In this document: one piece after another, positions 4,701 through 7,793 of the stretch
Position numbering within the stretch: the stretch's first letter is position 1
Layout: the number at the start of each line of letters is the position of its first letter
Assembly: GCA_041500865.1 (NCBI GenBank)
Contig: JBGQMY010000025.1
Coordinates: forward strand, 1-12,773
Length of the DNA: 12,773 nt
Origin: Candidatus Micrarchaeia archaeon
GTDB taxonomy: Archaea > Micrarchaeota > Micrarchaeia > Anstonellales > J096
Direction of reading: 5' to 3'
Notes under the pieces: generated by a model
Told to the model about the DNA's origin: nothing
Database searches by the model: none
Seen by the model: only the letters and a program-made list of their open reading frames with translations
Program-made: the position numbers and the translations under genes

Positions 4701-5366
4701 TTATGCGCTTCCGACGCAATCCCTGAAATCTGCTACAAAGACTTTTGCCGCATCAAAGCCCATGCTTTTCCTGAGCCCCCATTCGCCGAGGAGGTAAAAC
4801 GCGTCCATCCTGTCGCTGTTTTTTGCGACGCTTATGGCCGTGCATCCAACAGTGCTCTTGCTTGATATGTCTGCGCCCTTTTCCAGGAGCAGATTGCACG
4901 TTACTGCGTCATTGGCGTTTGCAGCATCCATGAGCGGGGTCCAGCCCATGTTATTCTTTGCGTTCACATTAGCGCCTTTTTCAATCAGCAAAGCGCAGGT
5001 TTCAGCATGTCCGTTCTGTATTGCCCACATGAGCGCGGTCGTGTCTGACAGGTCCCTTGCTTTGACATCCGCCCCATTCTCAATCAGGAACTTGCACACA
5101 TCGCTTTTTCCCTCCATGGCCGCAACCATCAGCGCAGTCATTCCAGGATTTCCTTCGGCCTCCATGTCTGCGCCTGCCATGATGAGGCTCTTTATTTTTT
5201 CCCAGTCATATATTGCGCTCCAGAAATGGGGGTCCTCATCATTACTACTTGTTATCTCTGCCTTGAGCATTTTTGTGAGCTCTTTCTCGCTTTCAACGAT
5301 GTCGCCGAGCCTTGGCTTGGGGCCTTGTTTAGCATCTGACCTTTCCTTGCCCATCAGTTCCGCCAT
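4701..5366 (-). CDS. Ankyrin-repeat protein (array member 5)
   Basis: About four repeats: GMTALMVAA..LIENGAD, TTALMWA..LIEKGAN, GWTPLMDAA..LLEKGAD, GCTAISVA. Confidence 0.93.
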   Translation of the reverse strand: MAELMGKERSDAKQGPKPRLGDIVESEKELTKMLKAEITSSNDEDPHFWSAIYDWEKIKSLIMAGADMEAEGNPGMTALMVAAMEGKSDVCKFLIENGADVKARDLSDTTALMWAIQNGHAETCALLIEKGANVNAKNNMGWTPLMDAANANDAVTCNLLLEKGADISSKSTVGCTAISVAKNSDRMDAFYLLGEWGLRKSMGFDAAKVFVADFRDCVGSA

Positions 5367-5370
5367 AAGC

Positions 5371-5982
5371 TCATCCCTTGACGCACTCCCTGAAGTTCCA
5401 CATGAACGTACTTATCCTCTCCATTAGCATCTTCGTAAGCATGGCTTCAATAAGGTAGCGAAGCACGTCGTTTTCGCCGCCTTCCGAATAACTTACTGCA
5501 GCCAAAACGGTTCCTTTGATGAGATTCCTTGCGTCTGCGGCATACCAAATCGCATTTTTGCCTTCCTTGTCCCTTGTTAGGATGTCCGCGCCATCTAGAA
5601 TCAGCAGCTCGCAGATGGAATAGCCTACATTTCTGTGTATCTTGGTTGCCGCGAACATGAGCGCGGTTTGGCCGTTGTGCTCCATTTGGAAATTCGCATC
5701 TGCCCCGTTGTCCACCAGGAACCTGCATACCCCGATGTTTCCCTCTTGTATCGCATGTATAAGCGGAGGCGTGTAGGCACCGAGCAATCCGTTCGGGTCA
5801 GCGCCCAAAAGAATAAGCCGCTTTATCTCTTCCCAATTGATGATATTTGGGCAGCCTGTTACTGATTTGATCTGGCGTCTGAGCTGGCGAGTTAATTCCT
5901 CATTGTATTCAAAAATGTCGCCGAGCCTTGGCTTAGGCTGTTTGGAATCTTTTTCTTTTCCGCCTTGCTTCAGCTCAGCCAT
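5371..5982 (-). CDS. Ankyrin-repeat protein (array member 4)
   Basis: PPLIHA..FLVDNGAD, GQTALMFAA..LILDGAD, GKNAIWYA. Start at MAELKQGG (5982) by homology to the sibling genes. Confidence 0.9.
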   Translation of the reverse strand: MAELKQGGKEKDSKQPKPRLGDIFEYNEELTRQLRRQIKSVTGCPNIINWEEIKRLILLGADPNGLLGAYTPPLIHAIQEGNIGVCRFLVDNGADANFQMEHNGQTALMFAATKIHRNVGYSICELLILDGADILTRDKEGKNAIWYAADARNLIKGTVLAAVSYSEGGENDVLRYLIEAMLTKMLMERISTFMWNFRECVKG

Positions 5983-6259
5983 GTTTCTCATCCTTTAATG
6001 CACTCCTTGAATTCCCGCATGAACGCCTTTCCTAGCATAATCTCGACAAGATAATGCAGCGCGTTTCTTTCAGTCCTGTTCATGTAGCTCCCTGCAACGA
6101 GCTTCCTGGTTTCTGCAACCCACATAATTGCATCTTTGCCATTGCTGTCCCTCAGGGATATGTCCGCGCCATGCTCAAACAGCATGTCGAAGATTGCGCA
6201 GGCTGTATCCCCGTGTATCCTGCATGCCGCGAACATGAGCGCGGTTTGGCCGTTGTGCT
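5647..6259. repeat. 35-bp identical repeat (5647-5681 and 6225-6259) within ankyrin members 4 and 3
   Basis: TGCCGCGAACATGAGCGCGGTTTGGCCGTTGTGCT, encoding HNGQTALMFAA in both genes. Confidence 0.9.
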
Positions 6260-6551
6260 TCATTTGGAAATCCGCGTCCGCCCCCTTTTCCAGAAGGAAC
6301 CTGCACATCTCAACCTTTCCCTCGCTTACTGCATGCATAAGCAAAGACATGTAGCGGTCGATCATTGCGTTCGGGTCGGCGCCCAACGATACGAGACGCT
6401 TTACCTCTGCCCAGTTCGCGTTAGTCACGCATCCAATCTTGACTGATTTGAGCTGGCGGGTCAGCTTTCCTTTGTATTCAAAAATGTCGCCGAGCCTTGG
6501 CTTGGGTTGGCTAGTATTTCTTTCCTTCCCTCCTTGCTTCAGCTCCGCCAT
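5988..6551 (-). CDS. Ankyrin-repeat protein (array member 3)
   Basis: SLLMHA..FLLEKGAD, GQTALMFAA..LFEHGAD, GKDAIMWV. Close paralogue of member 4. Confidence 0.9.
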   Translation of the reverse strand: MAELKQGGKERNTSQPKPRLGDIFEYKGKLTRQLKSVKIGCVTNANWAEVKRLVSLGADPNAMIDRYMSLLMHAVSEGKVEMCRFLLEKGADADFQMKHNGQTALMFAACRIHGDTACAIFDMLFEHGADISLRDSNGKDAIMWVAETRKLVAGSYMNRTERNALHYLVEIMLGKAFMREFKECIKG

Positions 6552-6555
6552 AAGC

Positions 6556-7212
6556 TCATACCTTCACGCACTCTCTGAAAACTGCGGCAAATCCCCCTGC
6601 CGCCTTTCCCACGATTTTCCTGAGCGCCCATTCCTCAAGAAAGTAAAATGCATCCATGCTGTTATTATTCCTTGCGAAACCCAGTGCATTGTTTTTGCAA
6701 ACATCCCTGGCCCAAAGATTTGCGCCATTTTTCAGAAGAATCTTGCATGCCGCCATGTCATCGTCCTTTGCCGCGTACATCAGCGCCGTGCAGTCCGCAA
6801 TATTGGCCACATTCACGTCCGCGCCCTTTTCAACCAGCAGTTCGCATATCTCAGGATGGCCGCCCCCCGCAGCCTTCATCAGCGGCGTCTCGCCAAAGCG
6901 GTCCCTTGGGTCTATTCTTGCGCCTTTTTCCAGAAGAAATTGGCATACATCCAGCTCGCCGGCCATGCTGGCCTCGTTCAGCGCAGTGCTTTTGTCCATT
7001 GTCCTTGCCCGGGCGTTCACGTCAGCGCCATCTTCGATAATTTCCATTATTCTTTTCCAGTATGCCCTGCTTTTGTTGTAAATGCCTGCATTTGCCAGCA
7101 GATTTTTGAGCTCGCAGTCCAGCCTGCGATTCTCCAGCGGGTCGCCCAGGCGCGGCTTTGGGCCTTGCTTCGCATCTGACTTTTCCTTTCCGCCCTGCTT
7201 CAGCTCCGCCAT
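6556..7212 (-). CDS. Ankyrin-repeat protein (array member 2)
   Basis: STALNEA..FLLEKGA, GETPLMKAAGGGHPEICELLVEKGAD, CTALMYAA..LLKNGAN. Start at MAELKQGG (7212). Confidence 0.93.
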   Translation of the reverse strand: MAELKQGGKEKSDAKQGPKPRLGDPLENRRLDCELKNLLANAGIYNKSRAYWKRIMEIIEDGADVNARARTMDKSTALNEASMAGELDVCQFLLEKGARIDPRDRFGETPLMKAAGGGHPEICELLVEKGADVNVANIADCTALMYAAKDDDMAACKILLKNGANLWARDVCKNNALGFARNNNSMDAFYFLEEWALRKIVGKAAGGFAAVFRECVKV

Positions 7213-7217
7213 ATCCG

Positions 7218-7793
7218 TCATCCCTTCATGCACGCTATAATATTTGCCATGAATATGTCAGTATATTTCATCCCAAACCATTTTTCAAGCGCAGTCATCA
7301 TCATGTCGTCAAACAGGAACAGGCCTCTTTCTGAAATCCAAGCGTGGCTGAGAAATGCGTGGCCGAATACATTGAGACCTTTCTTGTCCTGTATGCCCAT
7401 GTTCGCGCCCCAATTTATCAGCAGCCGGCATTCGGTGCCATGCGAAAAATCGGCTGCAAGCATCAGCGCAGTCTCCCCATAATCATCCTGCGCATTTATT
7501 TTCGCGCCCTTGTGCAGCAGGAACCTGCAAACTGTGTTTTCCCCGGCCGCGGCCGCAATAATAAGGGCAGTCCTGCCAGCGAAATTCCTGGTTTCAACAT
7601 CAGCGCCGTCCTCAACCAATTTCATTATTCTTTCCCAGCCAAACTGTGTTGCATTTTCTAACATATGTACTAGTTCTTCTTCCAGCTTTGTTTTGTCCAA
7701 GCATGCAGAATCCGGCTCTGGCTTCGCGAGATTCCCCGCGCTGGTCTTGGGAAGCATGCCGATATTTTTGCCGTTCTCAAGCCGCTCTGCCAT
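7218..7793 (-). CDS. Ankyrin-repeat protein (array member 1)
   Basis: GADVETRNFAGRTALIIAA..FLLHKGAKINAQDDYGETALMLAA..LLINWGAN. Confidence 0.92.
   Translation of the reverse strand: MAERLENGKNIGMLPKTSAGNLAKPEPDSACLDKTKLEEELVHMLENATQFGWERIMKLVEDGADVETRNFAGRTALIIAAAAGENTVCRFLLHKGAKINAQDDYGETALMLAADFSHGTECRLLINWGANMGIQDKKGLNVFGHAFLSHAWISERGLFLFDDMMMTALEKWFGMKYTDIFMANIIACMKG

Follow-up and report, generated by a model that had tools for sequence, protein, structure and literature searches.

A five-gene ankyrin operon of a Micrarchaeia archaeon is a minor, rapidly reshuffled part of a family of about 120 ankyrin-repeat proteins

The five-gene operon analysed here is a small and rapidly reshuffled part of the set of approximately 120 ankyrin-repeat binding proteins of a Micrarchaeia genome of 1.04 Mb. 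It lies in the window (the whole 12,773-nt stretch of DNA that was analysed). The genome (hereafter G000) contains 126 ankyrin ORFs, 122 of them complete, spread over 75 clusters; 119 of its approximately 1031 genes, i.e. about 11%, are ankyrin genes. The preliminary description of the window had proposed the operon itself as a candidate repertoire, but its five genes are only about 4% of the family. The identity of a member to its nearest paralogue has a median of 47%, and none of 118 proteins reaches 80%, although the assembly may have merged near-identical copies where contigs end. DPANN membership, supposed from the start for a probable symbiont, was supported, the nearest named DnaG loci being those of Ca. 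Micrarchaeia/Micrarchaeota. Similar expansions, with different constant ends, are found in five Micrarchaeia families (an unpublished genome, G313, was counted only in the 301-genome tallies).

A 2014 survey found more than one ankyrin protein in only four archaeal species, archaea being almost without them (PMC3932732), and the word 'ankyrin' is absent from the main text of PMC8204110. We found no description of an ankyrin expansion in Micrarchaeota, DPANN or archaea in the main texts of the openly accessible literature; a prior mention is possible. Bacteria and giant viruses that manipulate eukaryotic cells are typically marked by large ankyrin repertoires. The presence of about 120 ankyrin proteins in a DPANN genus, together with the expansions in five families, points to a set of molecular tools by which DPANN archaea may interact with their hosts, a subject on which little is known. 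The family is also a natural source of diversified scaffolds.

The layout of the site is as follows:

7903-7978, minus strand: tRNA-Arg(TCT), flanking the variable site upstream
7817-7824, minus strand: operon TATA box (TTTATAAA, -31 to -24 of gene A), within the family's promoter cassette of about 30 bp; nearly identical in the close relative L112
7801-7806, minus strand: CA[CT]AA-type box (-13 to -8 of gene A), matching that of the family promoter cassette
7218-7793, minus strand: gene A, 191-aa ankyrin protein, first in the operon, leader unlike those of B-E
7218-7253, minus strand: FxxxFx[ED]C tail of A (FMANIIAC, Cys at -4)
7218-7227, minus strand: putative Shine-Dalgarno-like tract for B, within the final codons of A
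6556-7212, minus strand: gene B, 218 aa from the MAELKQ start, three canonical repeats
6556-6591, minus strand: tail of B, Cys at -4
5988-6551, minus strand: gene C, 187-aa ankyrin protein, second repeat bearing an insertion
5988-6023, minus strand: tail of C
5371-5982, minus strand: gene D, 203-aa ankyrin protein
5647-5706, minus strand: block common to C and D, around which halves are exchanged
5371-5406, minus strand: tail of D
6556-6565, 5988-5996 and 5371-5380, minus strand: further putative Shine-Dalgarno-like tracts, in the last codons of the preceding genes
4701-5366, minus strand: gene E, 221-aa ankyrin protein
4701-4739, minus strand: tail of E
4684-4691, minus strand: T-tract after gene E, at the TATA position of the CBS gene
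4226-4660, minus strand: CBS-domain gene, downstream flank of the variable site

Five co-oriented ankyrin genes of 187-221 aa, 4-5 nt apart and preceded by a TATA box, had been announced, and all this was borne out: the stop-to-start gaps are 5 (A/B), 4 (B/C), 5 (C/D) and 4 nt (D/E). The Shine-Dalgarno-like tracts were recognised from the 16S rRNA 3' end on contig C12 and the junction sequences. The T-tract after gene E is also present before the CBS gene in the congeners G001 and G002, and its position suggests that it is probably terminator and promoter in one. The setting beside a tRNA-Arg among housekeeping genes was likewise as described, the neighbours being CBS, DUF167, Toprim primase, PriS, PriL, Sm, NYN and TatD genes. 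Run X2, from a different study, contains identical contigs that span the E/D, C/B and A-tRNA junctions; among the contigs listed, no identical one bridges D/C or B/A.

All five proteins pass the Pfam Ank and Ank_2 cut-offs and match ankyrin models only, in agreement with the earlier statement that no enzymatic domain is evident: the folds are DARPin-like and non-catalytic. Of the 2-4 repeats proposed per protein, an HMM counts 2-3 canonical ones; for E, the AlphaFold model has four helix pairs in addition to a capping pair. In that model (pLDDT 90) a disordered leader precedes the ankyrin stack, which is followed by a C-terminal helical hairpin (residues 187-202 and 204-219, pLDDT 88-93). In fold and size E resembles a DARPin (TM-score of about 0.9 over the DARPin); unlike DARPins, the G000 proteins are natural and old, as the divergence between paralogues indicates, and bear an extra leader and tail. 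A query with gene E against genome contigs gave no match. The constant ends that had been claimed hold in part. The leader is near-constant in B-E only (86% aa identity), and the window leaders are barely basic (net charge -1 to +3, versus a family median of +5); in the tail region the five proteins share 37-44% identity, which does not exceed that of the repeats (40-44%), and what is conserved there is a motif. The N-cap with an invariant Trp is present in all five proteins as quoted, but it is a local feature: a Trp cap occurs in 7 of the 57 family members with a locatable cap, and five of these seven are A-E.

A comparison of array content between strains had been proposed, and the content does differ, with modules shuffled. 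L112 has six genes at the site, in a different order and including a C/D chimera. Its genes A' and B' are the counterparts of A (73% aa identity) and B (67%), and gene E has none. The C-half of C is 92% identical in DNA to that of L112 C', while D matches C' in its N-half (88%) and D' in its C-half (92%). Of the informative sites in C', 61 of 70 in the N-half side with D, and 77 of 84 in the C-half side with C (p 6e-25). In the congeners G001 and G002, none of the five genes is present at the site: G002 has only a receiver-like gene, and G001 the same gene plus two unrelated tail-less ankyrins. A profile of the five genes scores at most 108 bits in these two genomes (which are incomplete, 77-86%) versus 244-299 bits for A-E. 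Gene birth, loss and reordering at the site and exchange of gene halves are established, and stable one-to-one orthology across the genus was rejected from the content of G001 and G002 and the low profile scores. Of the runs X4-X6, which had small shares, X4 and X5 were compared. Joints in runs X4 and X2 hint at other arrangements; they are hints only because most have short sides and 85% likeness, and one of them (X2, 6578-7242) is equally compatible with an L112-like A' tail and with the loss of B.

The excess variation foreseen at binding positions was found family-wide between paralogues, and not in the array. For the six closest independent paralogue pairs, dN/dS was 1.22 (0.93-1.58) on the concave face, 0.54 on the convex face and 0.27 in the core. 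All-pairs values above 1 were set aside, since synonymous sites may be saturated. A test in which one half of the repeat served to choose the pairs and the other to score them gave, in G000, a second-codon-position difference of 0.54 at concave sites versus 0.39 at interleaved four-fold sites (CI of the difference 0.07-0.21). The excess recurs in G002 and G225; no significant concave signal was seen in G064 and G008, and G052, with 3 clean repeats, was left out of this test. Family-wide, binding faces of paralogues have changed faster than neutral sites. For the five-gene array alone the interval spans zero, and the four array genes with counterparts in the relative (about 88% nucleotide identity) are under purifying selection, with dN/dS of 0.46 at concave and 0.52 at convex positions (38 and 48 codons), i.e. 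no binding-position excess: settled variants are conserved. Core dN/dS is 0.19-0.27, and broken copies are few for a 1-Mb genome. Stable orthologues under uniform purifying selection and evenly spread variation had been named as the contrary outcomes; neither appeared in full. Variability along the repeat peaks at positions 3, 5, 10, 13 and 14, a pattern general to natural ankyrins and no evidence by itself.

The second common element is a previously undescribed, cysteine-bearing tag. An amphipathic C-terminal helix, FxxxFx[ED]C, ends 97 of the 122 complete members and is genus-specific; the Cys lies at -3 to -6 in all 118 library hits, and the spacing of F-7, F-3, C and I/V+1 places them on one helix face. 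The tail is conserved (dN/dS 0.21-0.26 between orthologues) and portable, since it also occurs on a non-ankyrin family (P0237-P0240, 56-62% overall identity); the predicted model of P0237 has a pLDDT of 48. It is confined to members without a signal peptide: a hydrophobicity scan found a hydrophobic N-segment in none of 95 tail-bearing members, and the signal peptides seen among the ankyrins (3 of 123 by the scan, a fourth by eye) are all on tail-less proteins. The tail has no Pfam and no PDB match, and the ESM Atlas returned only generic or unnamed hits for it and none for P0237. Poxvirus ANK-PRANC/F-box and metazoan ASB adaptors join a variable ankyrin binder to a short conserved C-terminal helical module. 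The G000 family resembles them as a set of paralogues with a common C-terminal module; membership in these ANK-F-box/PRANC/SOCS adaptors was rejected, as none of 60 tails matched an F-box, PRANC or SOCS box Pfam model at E 0.5 and no solved structure is like the tail.

Our best explanation, which we hold tentatively, is that the operon arose by local amplification of one subfamily within a repertoire of small non-catalytic adaptors, about 120 in number and present throughout the genus, most likely used on host proteins. Each would combine a variable ankyrin face, picking a separate target per protein, with the invariant Cys of the amphipathic helix as part of a handle that one common partner may read. 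This partner could be a machine for delivery or remodelling, or an enzyme that attaches a lipid. The host would be the cell on which this reduced-genome archaeon depends, and the adaptors could reach its proteins by a non-Sec route. A candidate tail reader is a rare tandem AAA+/zincin-MIDAS cassette: tandem AAA+ genes occur in all five relatives with at least 42 ankyrin matches versus 3 of 36 others. Against this candidate, searches of five other expanded genomes did not find the MIDAS protein, and in genus g6 the cassette is present although the ankyrins are not expanded. The tail could serve as bait for this machinery, and the targets of the binders could point to the host.

The nearest known repertoires are those of the Dependentiae protist parasites Babela massiliensis (126 ankyrin proteins, PMC4378268) and Chromulinavorax destructans (98, PMC6561590) and of Amoebophilus (94): the count in G000 equals the first, a record that amoeba-infecting bacteria hold, and exceeds the second, and all share about 100 or more ankyrins, over 10% of genes, a small host-dependent genome and non-catalytic, presumed interaction modules. 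G000 differs in being an archaeon, in its common cysteine-bearing tail and in the lack of a Sec signal peptide on most ankyrins, and this last point tells against our best explanation, as most Babela and Chromulinavorax ankyrins have one (79/126 and 78%, respectively). Also against it are the barely basic window leaders, the missing binding-face excess in orthologous array segments and the lack of a significant signal in the array alone, in G064 and in G008. The confident model of the tail hairpin would also fit a plain structural cap. Neither an F-box nor an ADP/ATP translocase (PF03219) was found in 5 genomes, in searches run without a positive control. It seems rather improbable that the lineage is itself a parasite of a eukaryote (e.g. 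a sediment protist), with about 100 ankyrin effectors and equivalents evolved independently in other Micrarchaeia lineages; if it were, an undescribed delivery route would read the cysteine-bearing helix.

We consider it somewhat unlikely that the proteins serve self-defence, i.e. that they are cytoplasmic binders which neutralise proteins of viruses, toxins of competitors or of the host, or lytic enzymes of the cell itself, with the tail docking on a common cellular partner. The diversified binding face would fit equally well, as would the missing signal peptides. Operonic, strain-variable tandem arrays are typical of polyimmunity loci: according to Zhang et al. 2012 (PMC3482391), ankyrin immunity proteins exist, and homogeneous polyimmunity/Imm-ank loci consist, like the predicted operon here, of tandem co-transcribed paralogues varying in number and order between close relatives. 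Bdellovibrio Bd3460 is a self-protective ankyrin (PMC8080830). Polyimmunity is, however, usually limited to one locus per genome in the former source, whereas G000 has 75 dispersed clusters with a constant tail and no associated toxin; at the operon, neither a toxin nor an effector domain is joined to the proteins or encoded next to them, and hits to PADLOC and NCBIfam, including NCBIfam effector models, cover the ankyrin part only, the NCBIfam scores being far below cut-offs.

A largely non-adaptive spread of a compact promoter-plus-gene cassette, with shared ends due to common descent and gene conversion and the tail a structural cap, is improbable. It would account for the common promoter cassette and its relics (e.g. 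an 18-codon promoter-ATG-tail ORF), the overrepresentation next to tRNAs (12 of 38 lie within 300 bp, versus 4.6% expected), the identity of the L112 D' and C' leaders (66/66 nt), the patches of at least 90% identity that link dispersed paralogues, and the own ends of each Micrarchaeia expansion. Against it stand the low core dN/dS with few broken copies, the faster-than-neutral concave change and the retention of the tail on an unrelated scaffold; no tyrosine integrase was found.

Very improbable are eukaryote-directed effectors of an archaeon living on or in a protist, anchored in the manner of Legionella AnkB by host prenylation of a CaaX-like end. The Cys is at -4 in 59 of 97 tails versus 16 of 938 control ORFs (and in 4 of 5 window proteins), and the family size is like that of protist parasites. 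No prenyltransferase or Rce1 of its own was found in G000, so that any prenylation would be the host's. The a2 residue of a CaaX box is, as a rule, aliphatic. Here it is aliphatic in 1 of 59 tails and in 1 of 71 library hits, and four window proteins have Lys at this position; 38 of 97 tails have the Cys elsewhere than -4, and the F/Cys spacing is that of a helix face. Among 19 ankyrins sampled from G008, 8 carry a comparable helix Cys that lies 13-18 residues before the C-terminus (by eye; the tail HMM gave no match). Canonical CaaX membership was therefore rejected: AnkB (F-box, ankyrin, CaaX; PMC2916131 and PMC5506055) is, like the 59 proteins above, an ankyrin protein with a Cys four residues from the C-terminus, and G000 differs in its a2 residue, its variable Cys position and the lack of an F-box.

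It is hardly credible that an active diversity generator, whether a DGR or a cassette-switching system, acts on the ankyrin genes, given the divergence between nearest paralogues: G000 does encode a DGR (on C3) and a group II intron RT (on C36), but DGR target membership was rejected, as just one adenine-specific TR/VR pair is convincing and the gene that it targets is not an ankyrin gene.

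The preliminary description had reported five co-oriented ankyrin genes, 4-5 nt apart and headed by a TATA box, and this was borne out.

The five ankyrin genes of the window
gene A, 7218-7793, minus strand, open reading frame with a Pfam ankyrin match
gene B, 6556-7212, minus strand, open reading frame with a Pfam ankyrin match
gene C, 5988-6551, minus strand, open reading frame with a Pfam ankyrin match
gene D, 5371-5982, minus strand, open reading frame with a Pfam ankyrin match
gene E, 4701-5366, minus strand, open reading frame with a Pfam ankyrin match

The successive gaps are 5, 4, 5 and 4 nt. 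All five proteins passed the Pfam ankyrin cut-offs, and none matched a non-ankyrin Pfam family. Gene A is preceded by the TATA box, at -31 to -24; genes B-E have no promoter of their own, and for each of them the last codons of the upstream gene hold a Shine-Dalgarno-like tract (by comparison with the 16S rRNA 3' end of the source genome, G000). Three of the five checked junctions were spanned by identical contigs from X2, a sequencing run from another study. The window DNA is present in sediment metagenomes, and the closest named DnaG loci are from Ca. Micrarchaeia or Micrarchaeota. The 'constant ends' also proposed hold for the B-E leaders (86% identity) but were overstated for the tail, since the tail region is 37-44% identical, against 40-44% for the repeats.

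Other features of the window were noted. A conserved 134-aa gene (8066-8470), divergent from tRNA-Arg and 69-94% identical in relatives, gave no match in Pfam or NCBIfam. Upstream of the operon promoter, before tRNA-Arg is reached, lies a short element (7835-7871) with no Rfam match; it is also present in the congener G002 and recurs directly downstream of three other G000 tRNA genes (Lys, Lys, Arg). The 141-bp end (12633-12773), shared at 99-100% with the ends of contigs C3, C10, C28 and C35, is probably a multi-copy element; contig C36 carries a group II intron-type reverse transcriptase.

A profile built from the five proteins and iterated twice against G000 (1.04 Mb, 92% complete) retrieved 126 ankyrin ORFs, six of them fragments, which occupy ~7.5% of bases; a rough greedy count gave 119 ankyrin genes out of ~1031. 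They form 75 clusters over 24 of the 36 contigs. Of the 38 tRNAs, 12 are no more than 300 bp from a cluster against 4.6% expected; two of the twelve count as distance 0, since entire reading frames were taken. At least 62 members carry a ~30-bp promoter cassette, and 77/112 promoter-matrix matches fall inside family ORFs. Median identity to the nearest paralogue was 47%, with none of 118 members at 80% or above, although near-identical copies may be collapsed because contigs often break inside ankyrin genes; the family is old. In a tree built from 99 proteins with the tail, the window five and the six genes of L112, a metagenome contig of a close relative, formed one clade with weak support (0.73 and 73), and among 44 other genes having an adjacent paralogue only one had it as nearest relative. 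The window array is thus a local amplification, which explains its private Trp cap (7/57 members).

The cassette was also met elsewhere. At C11:280 (+) it is followed by an ATG and the tail alone, an 18-codon relic; more relics lie on C8, C10, C17 and C26. It precedes four non-ankyrin genes (L155:109-933, L156:98-937, L153:96-1307 and L157:152-1807), namely two methyltransferase-like genes, a double cupin and an mTERF-like repeat protein; by eye, the double cupin and one methyltransferase-like gene start with ankyrin-family-like leaders.

The tail [FLVMIY]xxx[FLVI]xxC ends 97 of 122 complete members (FxxxFxxC in 91). Its Cys stands at -4 in 59, -3 in 21, -5 in 11 and -6 in 4, preceded by Glu or Asp in 71/97. 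In the predicted structure of E, the tail is a confident helical hairpin after the ankyrin stack and the first 20 residues are disordered. The tail profile matched 19/32 complete ankyrins of G002 and 8/15 of the other congener, G001 (sampled from targeted regions); across 301 class genomes strong matches were confined to G000 and G002, and two single matches were marginal. Against 1.84 billion representatives it retrieved 118 proteins, of which 114 contain ankyrin repeats and 4 are fragments; every one has the Cys between -3 and -6, a residue that the profile itself weights. No Pfam family or solved structure matched the tail. The same tail ends a non-ankyrin protein and is kept in 4/4 homologues. 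A signal peptide occurs in 0/95 tail-bearing members, and the four members having one are all tail-less (p 0.002, not phylogenetically independent). A short ORF of genome G018 (L142:5008-5181) has a tail-like stretch and no detected ankyrin repeat.

Array content differs between relatives. In L112, where nine housekeeping neighbours show 92.5% protein identity to the window (dN/dS 0.12), the array comprises six genes, which run A', D', C', F, B', G: E is absent, two genes are new and the counterparts are 67-76% identical. The N-half of C' is D-like at 61/70 informative sites and its C-half C-like at 77/84, so that C' is a chimera relative to window C and D, with no direction of exchange implied; the D' and C' leaders are identical across 66 nt. 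At this site G002 has a lone receiver-like gene and no ankyrin, and G001 has that gene together with two unrelated tail-less ankyrins. The receiver-like genes of these two congeners (L012:4862-5485 and L013:1652-2290) have Pfam receiver matches slightly under cut-off; no counterpart was found in G000.

Excess variation had been predicted at the binding positions. Concave positions were 2, 3, 5, 13 and 14 (with 33 in one dN/dS analysis), which, following DARPin design, we take to be the binding face; position 10 was added after its entropy had been seen. For orthologous array segments (window versus L112), dN/dS was 0.46 at concave positions (38 codons), 0.52 at convex, 0.19 in the core and 0.21-0.26 in the tail. 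This is purifying selection without excess at the binding face, which counts against ongoing diversification of the window five. Elsewhere in G000, six pairs of closest paralogues, independent of each other, gave 1.22 (0.93-1.58) concave, 0.54 convex and 0.27 core. In a stricter test, repeat pairs were picked on positions 16-32 and concave second-position differences compared with interleaved four-fold sites; these were scored only in codons matching at their first two bases, a restriction that may bias the four-fold values low: 0.54 versus 0.39 in G000, 0.66 versus 0.35 in G002 and 0.31 versus 0.22 in G225. The excess was not significant in G064, G008 or the window array alone. The pattern fits a binding face changing rapidly after duplication and conserved thereafter.

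Expansions occur elsewhere in the class. Among 41 relatives, Ank_2 matches numbered 113 in G000, at least 93 and at least 95 in its congeners, then 73, 42, 25 and 19, and 0-12 in each of the remaining 34; eight of 301 class genomes, in five families, had at least 70 first-look candidates (not gene counts). In the regions sampled, each expansion has its own ends: 13 ankyrin genes of G052 share another tail, distinct from that of G225, and only the leader is common in G064. The single-contig genome G225 carries ~38 head-to-tail ankyrin genes with overlapping stop/start and their own constant tail (G225:C1:688000-726000, L190-L191). In a 2014 survey, 15/133 archaea had ankyrin proteins and four species had several; the largest bacterial share listed there was 4.5% (PMC3932732). 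Published counts are 126 for Babela (PMC4378268) and 98 for Chromulinavorax (PMC6561590). No published description of such an archaeal repertoire was found in the literature searched.

We consider it likely that the family is a selected, diversifying binder family whose shared tail is functional, and this is more secure than the direction of its use. The best reading, which we hold at somewhat less than even, is that the family is a repertoire of adaptors, each an ankyrin binder with a tail tag, that would act on the host, working like bacterial and viral ankyrin repertoires; the window operon would be one locally amplified, recombining branch. By membership tests the family fell outside the secreted Dependentiae-type and F-box/SOCS classes.

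As candidate partners of the tail, a tandem AAA+ and a large zincin-MIDAS protein (recognised by motifs, without Pfam match) were searched for. In the tail an acidic residue usually precedes the Cys; MIDAS sites take acidic residues as ligands, and a Cys can coordinate a catalytic zinc. The tandem AAA+ occurs in 8/41 relatives, including all five having at least 42 ankyrin matches. The zincin-MIDAS protein occurs in 4/301 class genomes and was not found in five other expanded genomes. Counted by genus, p is 0.003, but three of the four genera belong to one family. Both are leads only.

An intracellular defence repertoire is a less probable use of the same binders. Non-adaptive spread of the cassette is improbable beside the concave values of the paralogue pairs. 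Still less likely are effectors prenylated by a eukaryotic host: the tail resembles CaaX in its Cys position and fails at the a2 residue, which places the family outside that class. Neither prenyltransferase nor Rce1 was found in G000, so any prenylation would be the host's. A DGR-like generator is the least credible source of the variation, the family having failed the membership test for the DGR class.

G000 does carry a complete DGR with reverse transcriptase (C3:18403-20739, L163), whose template (19542-19624) and variable (20048-20130) repeats have 17/17 mismatches at adenine; the variable repeat lies in a 303-aa gene without Pfam match. A tandem array of seven ~535-aa paralogues lies at C11:21371-32391, with one more on C35, and most of them end in a conserved Cys-containing motif.
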